A stretch of 64,000 nucleotides of DNA from an uncultured archaeon. Lineage in GTDB: Archaea > Asgardarchaeota > Thorarchaeia > Thorarchaeales > Thorarchaeaceae. Shown here one piece after another: positions 439-13,765 of this stretch. A model generated the notes under the pieces. That model was not told the DNA's origin, searched no databases, and saw only the letters and a list, made by a program, of their open reading frames with translations. Where the stretch lies: NCBI GenBank assembly GCA_964458565.1, contig CAYWJO010000004.1, positions 64,001 through 128,000 on the forward strand. The letters are read 5' to 3'. Positions within the stretch are counted from its first letter, which is position 1; each line of letters opens with the position of its first letter. Both the position numbers and the translations under genes were made by a program.

Positions 439-1770
439 TCATTTGAGTCCATGTTTCTTAAGGAATTCACCTAATACATCATCAAGGTTAGGTCGTCCAA
501 TCTCCTGCAAATCATATCTGACTCGTATACTTGGTTTTTTAATATCAATAAGACGTGCAAGATCAATAGGTGTACCAATCACAACAGCATCGACATCTGC
601 ATTATTGATTGTTTCTTCAAGTTCTTTCATCTGTTTCTTGCCATATCCCATCGCTGGAAGAACATCCTCTAGGTGGTAATATTTCTCAAATGTAACCTCG
701 ATACTACCAACAGCATAAGGTCTTGGGTCCACTATTATTGCACCCGCTTTTCGTGCGGCTATGTAACCTGCACCATAAGGCATACCACCATGAGTAACGG
801 TTGGTCCATCTTCAACAACGATAACTCTCTTTCCTCTAATTGTGTTCATTTTCTCAATTCCCAGAGGTGAAGCAGCATCGATAATCGTTGCAGATGGGTT
901 AGCCTCCATGATGTTCTCACGAACCATCTCCACATCCTCATAGTCCGCAGTATCAATCTTGTTGATAATAACCACATCTGCCATTCTTAGATTTGTTTCA
1001 CCAGGATAGTAGGATATTTCATGACCTGGTCTGTGCGGATCTGTGATGACAATGAGCAAATCCGGTCTATAAAATGGAAAATCGTTGTTTCCACCATCCC
1101 ATGTGATTATATCTGCTTCCTGTTCCGCTTGCTCTAATATTCTACCATAATCAACACCCGCATAGAGGATAACCCCCATGTTGATCATCGGTTCGTATTC
1201 CTCTCTCTCTTCAATGGTGCACTTGTATTTGTCCATATCTTCAAGGGTAGCATATCTTTGAGCAATCTGAGTAGTTAAATCTGGGTCATATGGCATCGGA
1301 TGCCTAATATTTACTGGTTTCAGTCCCATTTTTACCAGAATTTCGTTGACGCGTCGGGATGTTTGGCTCTTACCGCATCCGGTTCTCACAGCACAAACTG
1401 CAATCACTGGTTTGTTGCTTTTTATCATTGTAGTATCAGGACCCATCAAACGAATGTCAGGACCTATTGAATTGACCCATGCAATTTTACCTCCTACTGT
1501 GTCGTAGGAAAGGTCTGAGTATGCTAGTATGCATTGCTCAACTCCAAACTTTTCTACTAATTCAGGTAATCTCTCTTCAGGGTAGATCTTTATTCCATCA
1601 GGGTACAGCTTACCTGAGAGTTCAGGTGGGTACATCCTATCCTCAATACCAGGAATTTGCTCAGCTGTAAAAGCAACGACCTCATAGTCTTCATTATCTC
1701 TAAAGTATGTATTGAAGTTATGAAAATCTCTGCCAGCAGCTCCCATTATGATTACTTTCTTACGAGTCAT
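439..1770 (-). CDS. P-loop ligase of the cyclic 2,3-diphosphoglycerate synthetase-like/'predicted GTPase' family; probably the arginine synthetase (ArcE)-type subgroup
   Basis: N-terminal IIMGAAGRDFHNFN, Walker-like AVRTGCGKSQTSR, RHPMPY, IEEREEYEP, WDGGNNDFPF, VEDGPTVTHGGM. Confidence 0.8.
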   Translation of the reverse strand: MTRKKVIIMGAAGRDFHNFNTYFRDNEDYEVVAFTAEQIPGIEDRMYPPELSGKLYPDGIKIYPEERLPELVEKFGVEQCILAYSDLSYDTVGGKIAWVNSIGPDIRLMGPDTTMIKSNKPVIAVCAVRTGCGKSQTSRRVNEILVKMGLKPVNIRHPMPYDPDLTTQIAQRYATLEDMDKYKCTIEEREEYEPMINMGVILYAGVDYGRILEQAEQEADIITWDGGNNDFPFYRPDLLIVITDPHRPGHEISYYPGETNLRMADVVIINKIDTADYEDVEMVRENIMEANPSATIIDAASPLGIEKMNTIRGKRVIVVEDGPTVTHGGMPYGAGYIAARKAGAIIVDPRPYAVGSIEVTFEKYYHLEDVLPAMGYGKKQMKELEETINNADVDAVVIGTPIDLARLIDIKKPSIRVRYDLQEIGRPNLDDVLGEFLKKHGLK

Positions 1771-2028: not shown

Positions 2029-2580
2029 GTGAAACTGGTCAAACTTGCCGGGGAGGCTATTCGTCTATTACGTGAGAGTGGGTCTGAAGGAATTCGCAGT
2101 GACGAACTCGCAGAAGCACTAGGAACACCAAAGCGAAGAGTCTATGATATTATTGCTATTCTGAGAGCACTAGGGAATATTCGCACAACACGACGGTATA
2201 ATGGTACCACGATATCCTGGATTGACCGATTCAGAAACTTCGTTCCTAAGGATAGTTATGATGATATAAAACAACAACTCGAAACAGAACGAGAGACCAG
2301 AAAAGGATTGCAGGTGCAAGTTGTTGAATTAAAAGAGCAGCTTAGAGTCACCAGACTAAAAATTCGTCGTGATGTTGAAGCAATTGAAACAATGGAAAAA
2401 ACTGAATTCAACACCTGCCAAATAAAAGTGCGTCCTCTATCAAGAAATGGATTCAAACGAGTGAAGGACTCCGGTATGGAAGTCATTATCGAAACAACCG
2501 AACCTGGTATGATTGTTGATCCAACTGAAGAGGAGATTGATGAGACGGAGGATTTGTTGAAAAGCATCCAAAGGCTATAG
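2029..2580 (+). CDS. E2F/DP-like winged-helix transcription factor with coiled coil
   Basis: ELAEALGTPKRRVYDIIAILRALG matches the E2F/DP RRxYD recognition helix, followed by a ..ISW wing and a heptad coiled coil. GTG start after GGGGTG. Confidence 0.7.
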   Translation: MKLVKLAGEAIRLLRESGSEGIRSDELAEALGTPKRRVYDIIAILRALGNIRTTRRYNGTTISWIDRFRNFVPKDSYDDIKQQLETERETRKGLQVQVVELKEQLRVTRLKIRRDVEAIETMEKTEFNTCQIKVRPLSRNGFKRVKDSGMEVIIETTEPGMIVDPTEEEIDETEDLLKSIQRL

Positions 2581-3092: not shown

Positions 3093-4223
3093 TTGATGGA
3101 TAAGCTTGATGTTGCATTTGTTGTTGATACAACAGGATCTATGAAGGACGATATCAATGCGGTTAGGGATTCACTATTCGAAATTGTTAGTCAAATCACC
3201 GCGAAAACTATAGGGCTGTCAATCCGTTTTGGAATTGTATCGTATAGAGATCATCCTCCTCAGGATCGTACGTATGTAACAAGGACTTTTGATTTCACAG
3301 AAGACATCAAACGAGTGCACAAGGAAATAAGTCATCTAAATCCCTCTGAAGGTGGGGATACTCCTGAAGCTGTTGCTGATGCACTTCATGATGCCCGTGA
3401 AGAAATGTCTTGGGGACCAGATGCATACAAAGTCCTTCTACTGGTAGGAGATGCTCCACCTCATGGCCGACAATATTGTCGATTGGAGGATGATTATTTT
3501 CCTAATGGTTGTCCAAAAGGATTTGATCCTATTCAAGAATTGCAGGAGCTTAAGAGCGAACATGGGGGTACAGTTTTCATCTTTGTTTGCGGATGCAATC
3601 CACTCGTGGAGGAATCTTTTAGAAGAATTGCATCTTCGGTAGAAGATGGGAGATACTATTCACTTTTAGAGGCACATGAATTACCTACGGCGATATTAGA
3701 GATTCTGAAAGGTGTAGGTGATTTAATTGAGTTAGATCGTAAGGTCCTCCAATACTACACGAAACAAGATGGATTATTCAGTGTACCTGAAGGGGCCGAT
3801 GAATTAGGCATAACGGTGCGAGATATGAAAACCTCAATATCACGACTTATTGAAATGGAGCGTATTCCCAGATGGCCACGCGGCCGTCCTCTATCCTCCG
3901 ACAATAACGACTTGAAGGCTGCTCTGGGGGAGATTCCTGATGCTCTAATAGCTGGAAAAGCTGTTAATTATCGCATCAAGATTCGAAATGAAGGTCAAAT
4001 CACTGCCAATGTTCGTGTCCTTGTTTCATTGATTTCTTCGGATGGGATTTCCGAGGTCATAAACGAATTACATGAAATAGCACCAGATAGTTCGCAAACA
4101 CTGTCCCTTCGCCTTATTCCTATGGTTGATACACCAGGTCGTGCAAGTATCAGAGTTGAAGTACTATATGGATCAAAGACAATAGAATCTCAAATCTATG
4201 AAACAAGAATATTCACATCTTAG
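3093..4223 (+). CDS. vWA domain protein with winged-helix and C-terminal Ig-like domain
   Basis: LDVAFVVDTTGSM (MIDAS), GGDTPEAV, LVGDAPPHG; HTH-like VPEGADELGITVRDMKTSISRL; beta-sandwich C-terminus. Confidence 0.8.
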   Translation: MMDKLDVAFVVDTTGSMKDDINAVRDSLFEIVSQITAKTIGLSIRFGIVSYRDHPPQDRTYVTRTFDFTEDIKRVHKEISHLNPSEGGDTPEAVADALHDAREEMSWGPDAYKVLLLVGDAPPHGRQYCRLEDDYFPNGCPKGFDPIQELQELKSEHGGTVFIFVCGCNPLVEESFRRIASSVEDGRYYSLLEAHELPTAILEILKGVGDLIELDRKVLQYYTKQDGLFSVPEGADELGITVRDMKTSISRLIEMERIPRWPRGRPLSSDNNDLKAALGEIPDALIAGKAVNYRIKIRNEGQITANVRVLVSLISSDGISEVINELHEIAPDSSQTLSLRLIPMVDTPGRASIRVEVLYGSKTIESQIYETRIFTS

Positions 4224-4229
4224 ATCATA

Positions 4230-6875
4230 TTATTTCTGCTCAACTGATGTTGGGATTAATGATTCTATCGCGCTTACTAGGTATCCCAGAAATTGAAAAT
4301 GGAAATATCTCTCAAGTGAATAGATTCTACTTCTAATACTCCTATGTAGATTTTTATATTCATCTACATTAAATTCAGAGCCGATTCCGAATACATCCAA
4401 TGCATATCTTTCATGGTTTCCAATCGCACGAAGATACCCTTCCATCTCTTCAGAACTCTCAATTCCTCCATCTGAAAAAAGCAATATCAAGGTGGGACGC
4501 TCAGCACCCAGATCCTCAAGGTATTCAGCAATTGCCCGGTATGCATTAGATTCATTCTCTTTTTCTAAATCACCTTTTGTTGTGTCAAGAAGTGTATAGA
4601 CAAGAGATGTTAATACTTCGTCTGAAGAAATATCATTGTCAAAATCTATAAAATTCTGTACTTCGTTTCCCTTTTGAACTGAAAATTTTGAAAGGTTGTC
4701 TCCATTTAAAACCAAGCCTAATTTGCCTTCCGTCCTATTCATCATCACAAAATTGAGAATAAGTAGAACATTAATAATCGCACATTGTCGTCTTGTTATT
4801 GTTTTGTCCAATGAATCAATGAATCTGCTAATCTCTGGCACAATTTCAGAGATACTATCTAATGATTCTGTAAGTGAACTAAAATCATCGATGGTGATAT
4901 CCGTGTTGTCTAAATTCCGGCCCATCGAAATACAAAGGATGATGTTGAAATCCCGCAGGGATTGAGCTGGTCTAATTTGGATAGTACCAGTGATTATCCC
5001 CACCTCTCCTAAACCTAATTCTGGTGTTGATGAACTAATTACACATTTCATTTCTGGATCATGTTCAAGAGGACGTACAGCACTATTCCTACCAATATAC
5101 AAATTTTGTAAGAACTCCTGAATTTCAGACCTATGCAGATGCAGATATGAGATGATTTCAAATCCCGATCTAAGTGGTATCTGTTCAAAGGAGAAAACCG
5201 ACTGCTCTAATCGTGTGACTTCCGAATCATATTTGACCAAGTCCACCTGTTTGTCAACAAGGTCGAACGCATGTGCATCCTTTTTGGAAACCAAGACGCT
5301 TTTCTTTATACATGATGAATTCGTGTTGATATTACCTGCGCACCATTGACCAGATTCTGGATTCATTGCTAATACTAAGTCGTCTTCTATTAGCCCTGTC
5401 GCTCTGAGGTCCTCTGGACAAATTTGCAATGTGTTTCTCCTAATCTCCTCAGGTACAACAGCGAAATGAAGTGCTGAGACAATATCTTGCGCTTCTTTTA
5501 CTTGTAGTATTTTCAATAATTCTTGAGTATAAGCTGATAGATGCGATGGTGAGTCAAATGTATGTCCTGAGGTTGTTGTTGCAGCTTTAATCAGCGTGGT
5601 CATTACTTCAGATGTTCTCGATATTAATGAATCAGTAAATGTGCGACGCCATCCAGTTAACCTCAGTGTTTGGTCTCGATCAATATAAAGAGCAGTTGAA
5701 ATTAATGACTTTGACTTATTATCTTGAAGTGTTACAATGAGACTATTCAAATCAATGTAATCATCATCTGTTGCAATTAAATGATCACATGAAACAATAT
5801 GCTTGATATTCTGTGATGCGAGTACCTGTAGTATTCTTTGAAAATCTCCTAATGCAGAGCGACCTAAATTACCCTCAGCTGTAACTGATATATCATTTTC
5901 AATATAATGCATTGAATTAGGTCTTATCGGCAATCTTCGCAGAATGTTCGTACCTAGAATGCGTTGTATATCTTGAGGTCTAGCATTTAATTTTCGACTC
6001 AGTAAGTAGCTAAGTACTTCAGATATACTATTTCCCATTGCTGTATTGGGATATCCGGATGCAAAAACAATTCTTGTTGACCATTCATCACCTTGTGTTC
6101 GTTTGAGATAGTTGATAAGAGTTGAAAGAGACGATAGAGTACTTCCAGAAGTTAACACTCGACTATTTGGGATATCGACTAGTTTTACTATATCGTTCCC
6201 CCAAGACCGATGATCCGTTGTGGATAGGAATAATTCTGGTGAAGGGAGTCCTCCGTCTTTCACAGAGATTAACCAAGAAAGAAGGATATCAAGATCATCT
6301 CGGGATTCCAAATTTACAAATATGGGATATTTCGATTGAATGTGATTTATGAGATAGCTTCGCATGGTACTATCCATTAAATTTTCGAGATCACGCGAAT
6401 CACATGAACATGCCCAACCTGGTTTTGATATTGCGTCCAATCGCATATCTTGAACATGGTAAAATCTTGGTGAGTGAGGTGGACACATCGCCCATTCATA
6501 AGCCAAGTTTATATTATTCTGACGCTGTGATTTTGGTAATAGTGTGGTTCCGATGTTGAATAGTGGGTGGGTAAGGTAATAATCAATGAACCATCCAATA
6601 TCCAAAGCATTTGACAGAGTTCTATAGATATCTCCTAGAATAGGTGGTTTCTTGAGGTATTCATACGCCCGTCTGGGTATATATCTGAATGCGGTAGCGT
6701 ATGTACCAACGTAATCGAAAAGGCGATTTTCAACTCTATTGATATACATCAAGAGCTTCTCAGGACCAAACGACCTAGTTTGGTCCCCAATATGAATCTC
6801 ACCAAGGTTGACAACTGCATCAATTAAAACGAACCTTCTGATATCTCCAGTTTCTGAATCCTCGGCGACCAACAT
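4230..6875 (-). CDS. Fusion of degenerate amidohydrolase + CDC48 N-domain-like + degenerate vWA (pseudoenzyme paralog of the two divergent genes)
   Basis: Collinear similarity to 6996-8498 and then to 8545-9834; metal ligands replaced (DAVVN for DAHHH, ASGY for GTDY, ISMGRN for IDTSGS). Confidence 0.75.
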   Translation of the reverse strand: MLVAEDSETGDIRRFVLIDAVVNLGEIHIGDQTRSFGPEKLLMYINRVENRLFDYVGTYATAFRYIPRRAYEYLKKPPILGDIYRTLSNALDIGWFIDYYLTHPLFNIGTTLLPKSQRQNNINLAYEWAMCPPHSPRFYHVQDMRLDAISKPGWACSCDSRDLENLMDSTMRSYLINHIQSKYPIFVNLESRDDLDILLSWLISVKDGGLPSPELFLSTTDHRSWGNDIVKLVDIPNSRVLTSGSTLSSLSTLINYLKRTQGDEWSTRIVFASGYPNTAMGNSISEVLSYLLSRKLNARPQDIQRILGTNILRRLPIRPNSMHYIENDISVTAEGNLGRSALGDFQRILQVLASQNIKHIVSCDHLIATDDDYIDLNSLIVTLQDNKSKSLISTALYIDRDQTLRLTGWRRTFTDSLISRTSEVMTTLIKAATTTSGHTFDSPSHLSAYTQELLKILQVKEAQDIVSALHFAVVPEEIRRNTLQICPEDLRATGLIEDDLVLAMNPESGQWCAGNINTNSSCIKKSVLVSKKDAHAFDLVDKQVDLVKYDSEVTRLEQSVFSFEQIPLRSGFEIISYLHLHRSEIQEFLQNLYIGRNSAVRPLEHDPEMKCVISSSTPELGLGEVGIITGTIQIRPAQSLRDFNIILCISMGRNLDNTDITIDDFSSLTESLDSISEIVPEISRFIDSLDKTITRRQCAIINVLLILNFVMMNRTEGKLGLVLNGDNLSKFSVQKGNEVQNFIDFDNDISSDEVLTSLVYTLLDTTKGDLEKENESNAYRAIAEYLEDLGAERPTLILLFSDGGIESSEEMEGYLRAIGNHERYALDVFGIGSEFNVDEYKNLHRSIRSRIYSLERYFHFQFLGYLVSAIESLIPTSVEQK

Positions 6876-6995
6876 GATGGATTGCTCAATATTGATTTTT
6901 CTTGTATGAATATATGCCTGATGCGCATGTTATAACTTATTTTGAGGAAAGTTTTTTGGCAAATATACTCTCATATTTTCTTGGAGCACATCTGG

Positions 6996-8498
6996 ATGTT
7001 GATTATAGAGGCCGTGGTGGATCAACCTGAGCATGGGATTAAGAAAGGTGATCGATTCCGGTTGTACATTGTTGATGCGCATCACCATATGGGTAGAGAA
7101 GGAACTCATCGTAATACTCCAATAGGAGCATATGATTTCTATACACTTCTATGGTTTGAATTAAAGAAAATGTCTCAGCACTTGCTTGAGAATGAAGAAT
7201 TATTATTCGAACCTGTTTCAATTAAGCCGCCAAAGCTTCCGACGAAATTATTCAGCTCTAGGAAATCTTGGAGAAAAATGAACCACGGATGGATGGTTGA
7301 TCGTACTATTGTTTTTCCTTATTCTGATGATTATGCAAAATCCAAAATAGATGAAGTTGCGTTCAAGGTTTCTAATGATAAGATTGCAGGATGGACAACT
7401 CGTGCTCCCCATTCTTCGCGATTGATTGGATTCTTAAGATTGGATCCTTCTGATGGGAAAACATTTGGTCTGGATATATTAGAAGATGAAATCGATAGGT
7501 GCGTGGATTATCTTGGACTTCGGGGAATAAAACTCCATCCAATATCTCAACTCTTCATTGATGATATTGCTAGTCCTTCGATGCGAACAATATTTCATAA
7601 GGCTGGTACTCATTCTCTCCCCATAATAATTGATACGAGGAATATTCGTACAGTCTTGAAGTTAAAATCCCTCATCGATACAATGGATTCAGTCAAAGAC
7701 ATGGTTGTGCCAAAAATCATACTTGCTCATGCAGGAATGAGTCCTTCAGATACGCGTCTATATGAATCTCTATGTAATCCCAATATTTATTGTGAAACGT
7801 CTTCTATTCACGGTCTTGATGTCCCTCTTCTATTTGATATGGCACAAAAAAATATTGGTTCCAACTGGTCCGAAAAGATTCTATTTGGGACTGACTATTC
7901 ATTTCTGTCGACTCAGGCAAATGAGGTGATTCTCCATCTTCTATCCCGTAATTTTAATGGTACTCTCTCTGATATTCAAAGCATACTTGGCGGTAATGCG
8001 ATGAAACTTGTACAGACACCATATAGAAGAAAATCCGCCTCTGAAATTTCCTCTCTGCGAATAACTTGTACAAGAAGCCCATCAAAAACAAGACATCTAC
8101 TTGAAAACGAGATTGTAAAATCCATTGGTAATGGAGATTTGGATTTACAAAGCATTGATTTGATGGTCCCTGGAGGCGAGAAGTGGCCCCAGCTTCAGCC
8201 TCTATTCTCCGGGGGTTTTAATGGGATTCATTTCAGATCTTACCTTTTAAGTTTAAAATCCACAAATGACATACTTTTGCACCTCTGGATTCGCGAAAGC
8301 CCTCGACAATTCCTTTCATGTGCAATTCTAAGTCTCGATGAAATAGAGTTGATGTCTGAAGGTGCATTTTCACCACAACGGCTGAATTCAATTCTAATTG
8401 ATTCTATTTTGGATACATCTGAAATTGTGGAATCTCCTCAAATTCTGGTAAGGAGAATACAGGAACACATTTTGAAAAGCACTCCCAATAAGTCTTAA
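6996..8498 (+). CDS. Metal-dependent amidohydrolase (Amidohydro_2-type TIM barrel) with extra C-terminal domain
   Basis: VDAHHHMG, GLRGIKLHP, ILAHAG, KILFGTDY, ILGGNA. ATG at 6996 is preferred over TTG 6942 because it aligns with the paralog's N-terminus. Confidence 0.85.
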   Translation: MLIIEAVVDQPEHGIKKGDRFRLYIVDAHHHMGREGTHRNTPIGAYDFYTLLWFELKKMSQHLLENEELLFEPVSIKPPKLPTKLFSSRKSWRKMNHGWMVDRTIVFPYSDDYAKSKIDEVAFKVSNDKIAGWTTRAPHSSRLIGFLRLDPSDGKTFGLDILEDEIDRCVDYLGLRGIKLHPISQLFIDDIASPSMRTIFHKAGTHSLPIIIDTRNIRTVLKLKSLIDTMDSVKDMVVPKIILAHAGMSPSDTRLYESLCNPNIYCETSSIHGLDVPLLFDMAQKNIGSNWSEKILFGTDYSFLSTQANEVILHLLSRNFNGTLSDIQSILGGNAMKLVQTPYRRKSASEISSLRITCTRSPSKTRHLLENEIVKSIGNGDLDLQSIDLMVPGGEKWPQLQPLFSGGFNGIHFRSYLLSLKSTNDILLHLWIRESPRQFLSCAILSLDEIELMSEGAFSPQRLNSILIDSILDTSEIVESPQILVRRIQEHILKSTPNKS

Positions 8499-8544
8499 AA
8501 CCGCTCAGATGTAATGTCATTGTAGTAGAACAGGAGGCAGTGCA

Positions 8545-9834
8545 ATTACATCGAAATTATCTCTGGAAATTATTGATGGTGGAGACCTCAAGGGATTTGT
8601 TCATCTCAATCACGAGAAAGCAGAACAATTAGGCGCTGAGTTTGGTTCGATTGTTGTCTTTGAGGACCCGCAATCTGCGTTTTGGGGTGCTGGTGAAGTG
8701 CGTACAAATAATGAGGTGTCTGATGATAAAATCATGATAGATTCTCTTGTTTTAGAAGCATCACTCCTTATGGATGGAGATCAAGTAGAAGTTTCGTTAT
8801 ACGATGAGGATATGATTGCACTGGAATATGTTGAATTTGGGCTAAAGCCATTAACGGAGGAAGCAAACACAGAGGATTTGGTCACACGCGCTGCTGAGGA
8901 GGTTGAGAATCTGGAACGCCTTATTGGTGGTCGTTTGGTTTATCCAGGCATGTCTTTCAATTGGCCTGCCTTACAAGCAAAGGTGGAAATTATCAAGACG
9001 CGTCCCCATTTGACTGGAAAGAATTTCGCGAAGTTAGCTTTTGAGGCACTAAAGGAGAGAACTGGATACGAATTCAAGACCGTTGGGATTGCGACCCCAT
9101 TTAACGCAGTTCTATGTATTGATACAAGTGGATCGATGAAGACGACAGATGTTCCTGTAAAGGATATTGCTCACGCTCGTGAAGGGCTCAAAGACCTTGC
9201 AGGAGATAATCCTGAAGTACAGGAATTTCTTGATAGGTTCAAAGAGGGATCCAGAGTCAGTCGTGCTGAGGCTGCTGCAATGGCTGTCCTACTCTATCTA
9301 GCAGAGAAAGTTGGACGTGGATATGGAGAGAAAGTTGCCATAGTAACTTTCGAGAAAGATGTTAGTATAATGACTTTCATGAATACGGTTTCGGGACAAG
9401 TTCAACCATTTGTAGAGTGCACAGGGCGAGACAAATCCCTTGGTCTTCAGATTGTGAGTACTCATGTTGTCGATAAGGTTGAGGAAGGTGGTACTCTAAC
9501 GGATATGGGTAATGCGTTGAGCAAAGCAAGGGATGTGATCCAAGAATTCGGGGACTCTACTAAACCAACTATGCTCATTCTTCTTACTGATGGTATGACC
9601 ACTTCTGGTCCACCTCCATTGAAGGTTCTTAAGGAGCGATATAGCGACCTTAAGCATCTTGTAGTTTATTGTATTGGTCTTGGAGAACGTAGCGAGATTG
9701 ATGAAGAATTAATGCTGGCTCTATCACAACATGGTAATGGCACTTATCGTCATGTCGACAATATGAGAGATCTCTTAGAGTGGTATGGTCGCCTCGCTAC
9801 AGAATTTGCTGTTGTTATCAAGGGATCCGAATGA
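8545..9834 (+). CDS. CDC48/VAT N-domain (double-psi beta-barrel + subdomain 2) fused to vWA; probable ATT start
   Basis: Frame is open from 8515. First DPBB half (FVHLNHEKAEQLGAEFGSIVVF) lies upstream of the GTG at 8698. AGGAGG at 8532-8537, ATT at 8545. MIDAS IDTSGS...T...LTDG intact. Confidence 0.75.
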   Translation: MTSKLSLEIIDGGDLKGFVHLNHEKAEQLGAEFGSIVVFEDPQSAFWGAGEVRTNNEVSDDKIMIDSLVLEASLLMDGDQVEVSLYDEDMIALEYVEFGLKPLTEEANTEDLVTRAAEEVENLERLIGGRLVYPGMSFNWPALQAKVEIIKTRPHLTGKNFAKLAFEALKERTGYEFKTVGIATPFNAVLCIDTSGSMKTTDVPVKDIAHAREGLKDLAGDNPEVQEFLDRFKEGSRVSRAEAAAMAVLLYLAEKVGRGYGEKVAIVTFEKDVSIMTFMNTVSGQVQPFVECTGRDKSLGLQIVSTHVVDKVEEGGTLTDMGNALSKARDVIQEFGDSTKPTMLILLTDGMTTSGPPPLKVLKERYSDLKHLVVYCIGLGERSEIDEELMLALSQHGNGTYRHVDNMRDLLEWYGRLATEFAVVIKGSE

Positions 9835-9841
9835 TTTCTAA

Positions 9842-11149
9842 TCACTCATGCTCTAGAGCTTGGGCAAGACCCTTCAGAGTATCCTCATCCATTTCCTCAA
9901 GCTGATCCTGGGGCATACTATCTAGCATATCTTTAGGAATTGCTATCATTATCTTCGCTTTTGATTCCCCGAATTTCTGAGTCAGGTCTTTAAATCGTTC
10001 CTCTTCTTCCGGTGTACGTGATTCTTTTTCCTTCAAACTATCTTCGAGAATTTCTACTAATTCGGATTTCTTCATCGATTCCAATTTTGAATCCGAATAA
10101 TTCTCCTTAACGTGTAAGGGAAGTTCATCAATAATCTCAGATTTAGTCATGCTTTTGTATTCAGACCCACCTGTTGCAGCAGCCTCTTCATCTTCATCAG
10201 ATGAAGCGGCAATAAGCGCTTCCAAATCTTCTTCGGAAAGAGTATCAAGTGTTCCCGCCGGGAGGGATTCCTTGATGTCCTTAGGTATTTTTGCTATTAA
10301 TTCCTCACGAGATATTTTCTTTACCTTGCGGACACGAGTAACTTTTCTTACCTTAACCTTCTTCTTCTTCTCTTTTTCCTTATCAAATGATGAAAGCAAT
10401 GAATCAACAAGTTCCCTTGCAGTTTCAGGTGTGAGTCTTTTCAAATCTTCAGGTGGTAATGAATCTAATATATCATCGGGCAGTTCGTCAAGTATTGCTT
10501 CCACTTCTGCGGATTTTACTACAGAAGCTTCTGCATCTTTTGCGCGATCTTTCTCTAACTGTGCTCTATATTCGTCTTCTTTTTCTTCAAGAAGTATGGA
10601 TCCTGACTCCATCTCCTCTACAATAGACATGTCATAGTCGATATTAAAATCACGGTCTCGCCAATTGATGAAGTGATCAATACCTAGAGATGTCAGCTTT
10701 ATGGATGCTAGATATTCCCTTATCTCTTCTTCTCCCATATCCTCGAAGTTGTTTACGATTACAGACACTTTCTCTCTTGGAATCCGTGCCCAGATTGGAC
10801 CATGCAGCAATTTTGACAACCCAGCCGCACAATGCGAACGAACCCATGGATTAGAATCATGGAGTCCACGAATCATAGTCGGTATAGTTTTAGGTTGCTT
10901 GTACCATGCCAAAACTTGTGCTGCAGCAATTCGAACTTCTGCTTCCTCATCGTCAATTACATCGACAACATTGTCTACAATCGTAGGATCATTCAGGTCG
11001 ATTGCAGCTATTAGAGCACGAGCTCTCACAACATCAGAGGTGTCTGTGAAAGCTTTCTCGAGTGCCTTTCTTACTCTCTTGTCCTTTCTTGCCTGTATTC
11101 CTACTTCTTCCATTTCATATTCAAGCAATAGCCTTCTTGTTTCCGACAA
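9842..11149 (-). CDS. HEAT/PBS-lyase repeat protein with four C-terminal helical LP/IP repeats
   Basis: D.S.VVRARA / DEEAEVRIAAAQVL / DSNPWVRSHCAAGL HEAT repeats; acidic C-terminal half with four ~33-aa repeats. Confidence 0.75.
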   Translation of the reverse strand: MSETRRLLLEYEMEEVGIQARKDKRVRKALEKAFTDTSDVVRARALIAAIDLNDPTIVDNVVDVIDDEEAEVRIAAAQVLAWYKQPKTIPTMIRGLHDSNPWVRSHCAAGLSKLLHGPIWARIPREKVSVIVNNFEDMGEEEIREYLASIKLTSLGIDHFINWRDRDFNIDYDMSIVEEMESGSILLEEKEDEYRAQLEKDRAKDAEASVVKSAEVEAILDELPDDILDSLPPEDLKRLTPETARELVDSLLSSFDKEKEKKKKVKVRKVTRVRKVKKISREELIAKIPKDIKESLPAGTLDTLSEEDLEALIAASSDEDEEAAATGGSEYKSMTKSEIIDELPLHVKENYSDSKLESMKKSELVEILEDSLKEKESRTPEEEERFKDLTQKFGESKAKIMIAIPKDMLDSMPQDQLEEMDEDTLKGLAQALEHE

Positions 11150-12928: not shown

Positions 12929-13765
12929 TCAATCCTCCACAGTACCCTTATCCTTGGGCAATCGTAGTCCTCCAGTTCCAACTGACATTGCTGCTGCTGT
13001 TCCTGCAGTTACTCCTACTTCAGGTATGTTTGTAGGTACCATGATGATTAGATTCGCGTTCTTGGATATCTCTTGCATAATGTTCCATGTTCTGAGAACG
13101 AACCCAACTGAAGATTTCTCATACATCTTCGCTGCTTTGAGCATGTTTTCAGCAGCTTCGAGCTCAGCTGTAGCTAGTGTGATTCTTGCTCGGCGCTCTC
13201 TCTCTGCTTGAGCTTCACGACTCATTGCATCTTGAAGTGCTGCTGGAATCACAACATCTCGTATCTCTACAGATGTGACTTTGACACCCCAATGTTCTGT
13301 CTTTTCGTCAATTAATTCTTGCAGGTGACCTGCAATTTGATCACGCTCAGATAGTAGCTGATCAAGTGTTACTTTACCTGTGGTTTCTCTCAATGTTGTC
13401 TGTGCTGCAAGTTCCACTGCTACCGCATAACGTTCTACTGTCAGGATTGCTTTCTCTACATCTATAATGCGGAAATACATGACAGCGTCTACAACAACGG
13501 GTACATTATCCTTAGTCAATGACCTCTCTGTCTTGAACGCGTATGTCAGAAGCCTGAGGGAAACTTTCATAGCTATTTTATCTAGCAGTGGAAATACCCA
13601 CACGATTCCAGGTCCCTTAATATTGCGGAATTTTCCCAATCTTAGTATTGCAATTCTCTCCCATTCCTTGAGAACTTTGATTCCTGATGCTACAAACATG
13701 AGGATAAATATCGCAATGAATGTGATGAGAAGCATAATCATAAATCCTAAATCAAACGTTTGCAA
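12929..13765 (-). CDS. SPFH/stomatin (slipin) family protein
   Basis: EWERIAILRLGK, LTKDNVPVVVDAV, AQTTLR, WGVKVTSVEIRD, AQAERERRA. Confidence 0.92.
   Translation of the reverse strand: MQTFDLGFMIMLLITFIAIFILMFVASGIKVLKEWERIAILRLGKFRNIKGPGIVWVFPLLDKIAMKVSLRLLTYAFKTERSLTKDNVPVVVDAVMYFRIIDVEKAILTVERYAVAVELAAQTTLRETTGKVTLDQLLSERDQIAGHLQELIDEKTEHWGVKVTSVEIRDVVIPAALQDAMSREAQAERERRARITLATAELEAAENMLKAAKMYEKSSVGFVLRTWNIMQEISKNANLIIMVPTNIPEVGVTAGTAAAMSVGTGGLRLPKDKGTVED

Follow-up and report, generated by a model that had tools for sequence, protein, structure and literature searches.

We describe a group of genes in a 64,000-nucleotide stretch of an uncultured Thorarchaeota genome (contig CAYWJO010000004.1; the whole stretch is called the window below), where an 881-aa fused protein (FUS; 4230..6875, minus strand) faces two separate plus-strand genes, one for an amidohydrolase (AMI; 6996..8498) and one for a protein joining a Cdc48-type N domain to a vWA domain (VWA; 8545..9834). 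AMI and VWA form, together with a giant GCS2-type ATP-dependent ligase, a three-gene set found in most of the sampled Asgard families. The AMI-VWA pair was duplicated before the Thorarchaeota (Thor) split from at least three other Asgard families, one copy was fused to give FUS, and since then purifying selection has preserved FUS at full length. Judging from the alignments, FUS is a catalytically dead single-chain copy of AMI and VWA. No paper describing the module turned up in literature searches (Asgard with DEPDC5, with GATOR1, with Cdc48 plus von Willebrand, or with carboxylate-amine ligase), so the module is apparently an undescribed Asgard ligase-hydrolase-vWA set, of which the trio in the window is the Thorarchaeota form. 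The source genome is a metagenome-assembled genome (MAG) of 3.7 Mb in 93 contigs, 93% complete; salt-marsh metagenomes hold DNA of the stretch, and no RNA dataset is listed for it.

Homology of FUS with AMI and VWA

A preliminary description of this DNA had claimed that the 881-aa protein is homologous from end to end with the two plus-strand products, and both BLASTP and profile comparison bear this out. Pairwise BLASTP relates FUS to AMI at 2e-8 and to VWA at 2e-11. Family alignments were built for FUS (A1, A4), VWA (A2) and AMI (A3) and compared profile to profile with hhalign: FUS 1-391 matches AMI 1-425 (probability 99.6, E 1.3e-24) and FUS 472-857 matches VWA 6-407 (probability 99.9, E 9.9e-35). 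The homologous parts follow each other in FUS as the genes do, AMI before VWA, and the matches over both halves thus identify FUS as the two proteins joined in that order.

The metal sites tell the two forms apart. AMI retains the DxHxH, K-x-H, D, H and D residues, and its D26, H28, H30, K178, H180, D212, H244 and D299 are invariant in 16 AMI orthologs. The metal-ion-dependent adhesion site (MIDAS) of VWA is likewise retained, with the DxSxS, T and D residues (D193, S195, S197, T319, D349) conserved. None of these residues of AMI or VWA is present in the 29 aligned Thor orthologs of FUS, and most metal ligands are gone, in slightly differing ways, from three FUS orthologs outside Thor; the split AMI and VWA of the same non-Thor genomes have intact sites. 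The loss of the amidohydrolase ligands and of the vWA MIDAS, reported at first for the fusion of the window, therefore extends over all of these aligned orthologs.

The earlier assignment of the shared folds (Cdc48 N domain, vWA and amidohydrolase barrel) was upheld by searches with structure models. AMI, a predicted metal hydrolase of 500 aa with a C-terminal extension of ~150 aa, passes the Pfam Amidohydro_2 model (PF04909; 42.3 bits against a cut-off of 26.4, E 1e-10). FUS does not match this hidden Markov model (HMM), and its ortholog in family f16 reaches 20.3 bits only. The ligands of the Amidohydro_2 (beta/alpha)8 barrel (HxH, His, Asp) are seen in the AMI orthologs, and the barrel itself is seen in the model of the FUS paralog. 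The FUS model is compact and confident (predicted local distance difference test, pLDDT, 88.7; predicted template modelling score, pTM, 0.84). By model and alignment it divides into a dead amidohydrolase TIM barrel (~aa 1-320; 5916-6875), an alpha/beta middle domain (~aa 321-470; 5466-5915), a Cdc48N-like domain (~aa 471-636; 4968-5465) and a vWA-like domain without MIDAS (~aa 637-881; 4233-4967). Residues 15-318 resemble Amidohydro_2-type TIM barrels with Z 15-16.6 (4dlf, 3cjp, 3nur, LigW, LigI-like), the middle domain partially matches the C-terminal extension of AMI, and residues 635-876 resemble vWA folds with Z 15-17.7, with the MIDAS site gone.

The 429-aa VWA (model pLDDT 87.5) consists of a complete Cdc48/p97-type N domain, i.e., double-psi barrel and beta-clam (aa 1-180; 8545-9084), followed by a canonical vWA domain with intact MIDAS (aa 181-429; 9085-9831). 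The second of these passes Pfam VWA_2 (40.2 bits, cut-off 27; vWA families PF00092 / PF13519), and its model matches vWA folds with VIA Z 21-23 (4fx5, ITIH1, TFIIH p44, BatB, Sec24 trunk). The first superposes on the whole p97 N domain, with TMt 0.69-0.75 over ~185 columns and a root mean square deviation of 3.6-4.3 against isolated p97-N chains. VWA of the window stays below the cut-off of the CDC48_N HMM (PF02359; 12.2 bits, cut-off 35.1), which is matched by 18 of 37 VWA-family members (best 7.7e-9) and passed by the Jordarchaeia ortholog (35.5 bits). The VWA family profile matches double-psi-barrel designs, DEPDC5 and Cdc48. Sequence searches against solved structures gave nothing useful for AMI (best E 0.53) or FUS, and a feature search of the ESM Atlas returned generic vWA clusters only.

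Selection on FUS and its origin

FUS is under purifying selection at full length. Over 11 pairs of closely related loci the ratio of nonsynonymous to synonymous substitution rates (dN/dS) is 0.05-0.20 for FUS, 0.05-0.15 for AMI and 0.013-0.065 for VWA. Identity across the Thor family is ~77% for VWA, 48% for AMI and 35-40% for FUS, and the most constrained genes of the block include those for VWA, a Band7 protein and a CobW-like GTPase. One could argue that a protein from which all catalytic residues are gone, and which is the least conserved of its block at 35-40% identity, is a decaying pseudogene or an artefact of annotation. However, FUS is an intact ORF (open reading frame) of ~850-900 aa in ~90 genomes of four families, it has invariant motifs of its own, and its model is compact and confident. 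The dN/dS of the dead copy, which the preliminary description had put forward as a check, lies at 0.05-0.20 and not near 1. Thus FUS is real, dead and selected, and on the grounds of dN/dS and conservation we reject the pseudogene as practically out of the question.

A full-length FUS ORF is present in 78 of the 85 Thor-family genomes, and profile searches of other Asgard genomes revealed fused proteins of 840-895 aa in three further families. The fusion of G122 (family f16) matches alignment A1 with hhalign E 1.5e-44 over 826 columns; the others come from G120 (family f15) and G006 (one f3 genome). In the class that holds f15 and f16, FUS occurs in 11/11 genomes. With the queries used, no FUS was found in representatives of f11, f13, f18, f19, f21, f22 and f23. 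In a tree of the N-terminal halves (IQ-TREE) all FUS sequences lie on one side of a branch that separates them from all AMI, with support 100/99, and the C-terminal halves (FastTree) are separated from all VWA in the same manner with support 100. The trees and the common fusion therefore point to a single ancient duplication and fusion as the source of FUS.

The three-gene set and its locus

VWA-family proteins occur in 249 of the 400 genomes sampled from Asgardarchaeota. In nine of ten sampled families outside Thor a homolog of the ligase directly adjoins AMI (genomes G122, G120, G006, G193, G148, G131, G072, G133 and G087), and VWA lies within ~6 kb in eight of the ten. G122 and G120 carry the ligase twice, one beside each of two AMI-VWA pairs, and in the Jordarchaeia loci the gene convergent with VWA is a GCS2-type ligase too. 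AMI and VWA are adjacent in Thor, f3, f15, f16 and the Jord/Freyarchaeia loci. Co-occurrence in other genomes, on which the preliminary description had made its proposal depend, was thus observed in several Asgard families both for AMI-VWA pairs and for FUS. In the window the carboxylate-amine ligase, a giant GCS2-type protein of 1137 aa whose tail is long and beta-rich (17567..20980, minus strand), lies 7.7 kb from VWA.

Two variations of the set were noticed besides. The genomes of f22, the largest sampled Asgard family (e.g. G193, G261), and the proteins P0035, P0037 and P0042 show a VWA homolog of 700-770 aa with extra N-terminal copies of the double-psi barrel; in f22 this homolog is not beside AMI, and ligase and AMI are still adjacent. 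In one relative of the Jordarchaeia loci, AMI and VWA are separated by an inserted AbiEi/AbiEii toxin-antitoxin pair (L071:5984-7950).

Natural deletions show which of these genes depart together. G325 (98% complete) and G327 (95% complete) keep FUS, and no AMI, VWA or ligase was found in them; these genes were lost through two separate clean deletions in an otherwise syntenic Thor region. In both FUS-only loci (L048, L055) a HEAT-repeat gene stands directly upstream of FUS on the same strand. The genes that flank the ligase elsewhere are neighbours in L048, so the ligase was cleanly removed. All four genes, i.e., those of ligase, AMI, VWA and FUS, are gone from G328 and from three genomes of genus g15 (91-99% complete). 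From these genomes it follows that the active three are lost jointly and that FUS, with the HEAT-repeat gene, can persist alone. FUS is therefore not an obligate partner of the others, and the three-way complex suggested at first is not supported as an obligate one, since two genomes, 98% and 95% complete, keep FUS with no AMI, VWA or ligase found. The HEAT-repeat protein is a possible partner of FUS.

Another Thor genome, G320 (97% complete; G320:C27:82673-84106), has FUS; no AMI or VWA was found in it, and a divergent ligase-like ORF of 708 aa (36% identity) lies 7 kb from FUS. L037, a scaffolded chromosome, was considered as a further locus lacking AMI and VWA and was rejected for N-gaps at that spot.

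The ORFs of the locus stand as first described except for two starts, which were corrected to ATG at 6996 for AMI and ATT at 8545 for VWA. AMI of the window starts with its ATG after GGAG, and AMI orthologs all begin M-L-V-V after GGAGG. The reading frame of VWA holds no ATG, GTG or TTG before codon 52, which lies inside the barrel, so VWA must start at the ATT (8545-8547), placed 7 nt after a Shine-Dalgarno GGAGG (8533-8537; element 8533..8547, plus strand). The same holds across Thor: the first codon in 51 sequences is ATC in 43, ATT in 4 and ATA in 3, each 7 nt after GGAGG, and one has ACC at the start position with ATC as the next codon. The first 12 codons of 19 Thor VWA sequences are without a canonical start, and the frames upstream are unconserved and often run into a stop within 4-12 codons. 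Orthologs from Jordarchaeia and Freyarchaeota have ATG at the same place. In the window and ~50 orthologous loci (L008-L068) VWA thus appears to start at a near-cognate Ile codon, whereas gene callers truncate VWA (366 aa in L004) or choose a later start. The simplest reading of these sequences is that VWA initiates at a conserved near-cognate AUH codon, which suggests that its translation is set low or regulated.

The FUS and AMI starts are separated by 120 bp (6876..6995). This spacer, described before as a shared divergent promoter, is read directly in the sequence, and the promoters themselves are presumed. The HEAT-repeat protein (435 aa; 9842..11149, minus strand) is convergent with VWA and carries a long acidic, Lys-rich repeat tail; a HEAT protein is also found near the Jordarchaeia pair (L070:1043-1759). 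A 146-aa gene (21076-21516, minus strand) lies upstream of the ligase and is kept even where the ligase is deleted (L048). A Band7/SPFH gene (12929-13765, minus strand) is found with NfeD ~6 kb from FUS in Thor, and in f15 and f16 genomes such a gene adjoins the FUS-like gene divergently (L098:13987-14922, L099:3-854); it may link the locus to the membrane. On the other side, a second vWA protein (3093-4223, plus strand; VWA_4/VWA with an Ig-like C-terminus) is convergent with FUS, and in other Thor genomes 2-3 extra genes separate the two. The syntenic block also conserves an E2F/DP-type winged-helix protein (2029-2580, plus strand; Pfam E 3e-9) and a 443-aa protein (439-1770, minus strand) with 79-83% identity across Thor genomes and a weak match to the CobW/HypB/UreG P-loop, which looks like an unusual, highly conserved GTPase.

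Possible function and relation to known systems

A physical pairing of AMI and VWA is probable, as argued by the fusion, the adjacency, the compact model of FUS (pTM 0.84) and a complex prediction. The AMI-VWA complex gave an ipSAE interface score of 0.43 (runs 0.47, 0.43 and 0.25), and the best of three controls scored 0.00; at least 63% of contacts agree between runs, and the partner pLDDT is no lower than 78. The tool rates this as weak support; given the strong prior, we take this model as mild support for the pairing. That the two split proteins act together, as had been proposed from the fusion, is hence upheld by the fusion itself, by adjacency across families, by the FUS model and by this weak pass (ipSAE 0.43).

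We propose that AMI and VWA would form a heterodimer of which FUS is the single-chain model. The ligase would act on a carboxylate-bearing substrate to form an amide bond, and AMI would hydrolyse this bond or a related one. In VWA, the MIDAS site and the peptide-binding Cdc48N domain may serve to dock the substrate or a partner. FUS could be a non-catalytic binder, scaffold or regulator, which would recognise the same kind of partner without turnover, probably acting with the adjacent HEAT-repeat protein and being able to work without the active enzymes. Owing to its conserved near-cognate AUH start, VWA would be translated at a low or regulated level relative to AMI. Taken as a whole, the explanation by a three-gene set, an ancient dead fusion and these roles is in our view reasonably probable.

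The idea of removing an amide-linked protein modification, raised in the preliminary description, fares differently in its two parts. The amide bond is favoured by the GCS2-type ligase, which is linked to AMI across Asgard families and lost with AMI and VWA; the protein substrate is not. To our knowledge, those Amidohydro_2 enzymes and YbdK/GCS2 ligases that have been characterised all have small molecules as substrates. It could therefore be that ligase and AMI take a metabolite through an amide cycle of the gamma-glutamyl or another type, with VWA and FUS as assembly or regulatory subunits instead of substrate adaptors. Amide cycles have been proposed for FluG and for gamma-glutamylation pathways of amines. 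The characterised GCS2/YbdK and Amidohydro_2 enzymes are in line with such a cycle, as are the nearest structures to the FUS barrel (COG3618-, LigW- and LigI-type enzymes), the fusion of an amidohydrolase to a gamma-glutamyl ligase in FluG (PMC6478659) and the ligase-AMI adjacency, which is the tightest link in the set. However, a simple metabolic pair would not be expected to come with an apparatus for protein binding (Cdc48N, a MIDAS vWA, a beta-rich ligase tail of ~650 aa and a dead scaffold copy), nor with the very strong constraint on VWA (dN/dS ~0.03), and we regard the metabolic cycle as possible but rather unlikely.

Several points nevertheless weigh against the explanation that we prefer. 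Since the characterised relatives act on small molecules, a protein substrate is speculative, and the roles of the set members are predicted, with their chemistry read from sequence and models. The complex prediction is a weak pass only. Adjacency within Thor alone carries little weight, as the whole region keeps its synteny there over >20 kb; in G285, the exception among the sampled non-Thor families, the genes of ligase, AMI and VWA are dispersed, and distant VWA-family proteins (P0028, P0040, P0042, P0032, P0033) have no AMI neighbour or lie at contig ends. Long-branch attraction could falsely cluster the fast-evolving halves of FUS. Finally, the survival of FUS in two near-complete genomes means that its role need not involve AMI, VWA or the ligase.

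Delivery of substrates to Cdc48 or the proteasome, the other function suggested at first, was not borne out, because the locus has no linked AAA+ or proteasome gene. The same neighbourhood bears on the notion that VWA serves as a maturation factor and, like NorD, CoxE and CbbO, would load the metal centre of AMI or repair it, with the CobW-like GTPase 7 kb away as metallochaperone. MIDAS-containing vWA adaptors of metalloenzymes are an established theme, the NorQ-NorD vWA structure is among the fold matches, and the cobW-like gene stands in the syntenic block at 79-83% identity. Against this, the search of neighbours in the window and in related loci turned up neither a MoxR-type AAA+ ATPase nor another AAA+ family, and the cobW-like gene remains in genomes without AMI and VWA. 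Additionally, metal maturation explains neither the ligase link nor FUS, and we consider it very improbable.

The fold searches raised a further possibility. The top Foldseek matches of VWA (E 4e-13 over ~425 columns) and of FUS (E 8e-10) are DEPDC5/Iml1 chains, and the VWA family profile matches the N-terminal domain (NTD) of DEPDC5 with E 2.3e-4, slightly better than Cdc48 itself. In DEPDC5 the NTD is NSF-N-like and the SABA domain Sec23-like, a combination that has been called unique (PMC8534245). NPRL2-like longins were reported in most Thor MAGs, with no DEPDC5 homolog reported (Liu et al., 10.1101/2020.10.19.343400). One could accordingly see VWA and the C-terminal half of FUS as archaeal homologues of DEPDC5/Iml1 NTD-SABA, and the module as ancestral or otherwise related to the GATOR1/SEACIT scaffold, which cooperates with longin proteins and Rag-like GTPases. 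The Foldseek rank, the slight preference of the family profile, the NTD/SABA layout and the longins all speak for this. However, the template modelling score (TM) of 0.26 is low and p97 N-D1 scores nearly as well (E 7e-11, TMq 0.30-0.35); VIA-align on the whole VWA model returned vWA matches only and so gives no ranking of DEPDC5. The vWA domain is a generic MIDAS type with its best matches in bacterial vWA, ITIH1 and TFIIH p44, and the combination of two domains could have arisen twice. Over the whole genome the Pfam IML1 HMM (PF12257) matches nothing at E <= 10, and the NPR2 HMM likewise finds nothing there. No longin gene was seen among the scanned neighbours, and no longin or GTPase gene is linked here. 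We therefore find the module as an archaeal relative of the GATOR1/SEACIT scaffold doubtful, and the homology of VWA and DEPDC5 as such quite doubtful. That the front half of this scaffold came from an Asgard module wired to a ligase-hydrolase pair, possibly sensing or marking a metabolite derived from amino acids, is a long shot; if true, FUS would be an early example of the transition from enzyme to scaffold that is seen in eukaryotic signalling complexes.

The set of ligase, AMI, VWA and FUS resembles several known systems in part. DEPDC5/Iml1 (Sea1) of GATOR1/SEACIT shares with VWA a Cdc48/NSF-type N domain followed by a vWA/Sec23-trunk-like domain without ATPase, but the IML1 signal, the SHEN, DEP and C-terminal domains and the linked longins are not here: VWA ends after its vWA domain at 429 aa, and its MIDAS is intact. 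Cdc48/p97/VAT has the N domain on which VWA 1-180 superposes, but joined to AAA+ rings instead of a vWA domain. The Amidohydro_2 enzymes (PF04909; COG3618 lactonase-like 4dlf, LigW 4icm, LigI-like 4i6k, ACMSD type) share the HxH, His and Asp ligands with AMI and the N-terminal barrel fold with FUS. AMI differs from them by the extra C-terminal domain of ~150 aa and by the constant pairing with a Cdc48N-vWA protein and a GCS2 ligase, whereas the FUS copy is catalytically dead. FluG/NodGS-type fusions (PMC6478659) likewise combine an amidohydrolase with an ATP-dependent, amide-forming ligase of the glutamine synthetase/glutamate-cysteine ligase (GS/GCS) fold, but the Asgard set has a GCS2 (PF04107) and not a GSI ligase, separate genes, an added vWA adaptor and a dead paralog, and was confined to Asgard archaea in the searches made. 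The Pup ligase and depupylase (PafA/Dop) also pair a GS/GCS-fold carboxylate-amine ligase with an amide hydrolase in a possible write-and-erase logic. Contrastingly, the Asgard AMI is a TIM-barrel enzyme and not a paralog of the ligase, no linked AAA+ unfoldase was found here, and no Pup-like tag is linked, although no search for a tag gene was made.

Conserved and unstudied multi-protein sets in Asgard genomes are candidate precursors of eukaryotic machinery. Here the fusion serves as a natural Rosetta stone, indicating that a metal hydrolase functions as a single unit with a Cdc48N-vWA adaptor, and the ligase link together with the joint loss defines a concrete three-enzyme system open to bench testing. 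Two more points can be tested: the layout resembling that of DEPDC5 and the conserved start at a non-AUG codon. The dead single-chain copy predates the split of several Asgard families and is sometimes kept alone. FUS is thus a clear prokaryotic example of an enzyme pair that was turned into what we predict to be a non-catalytic scaffold.

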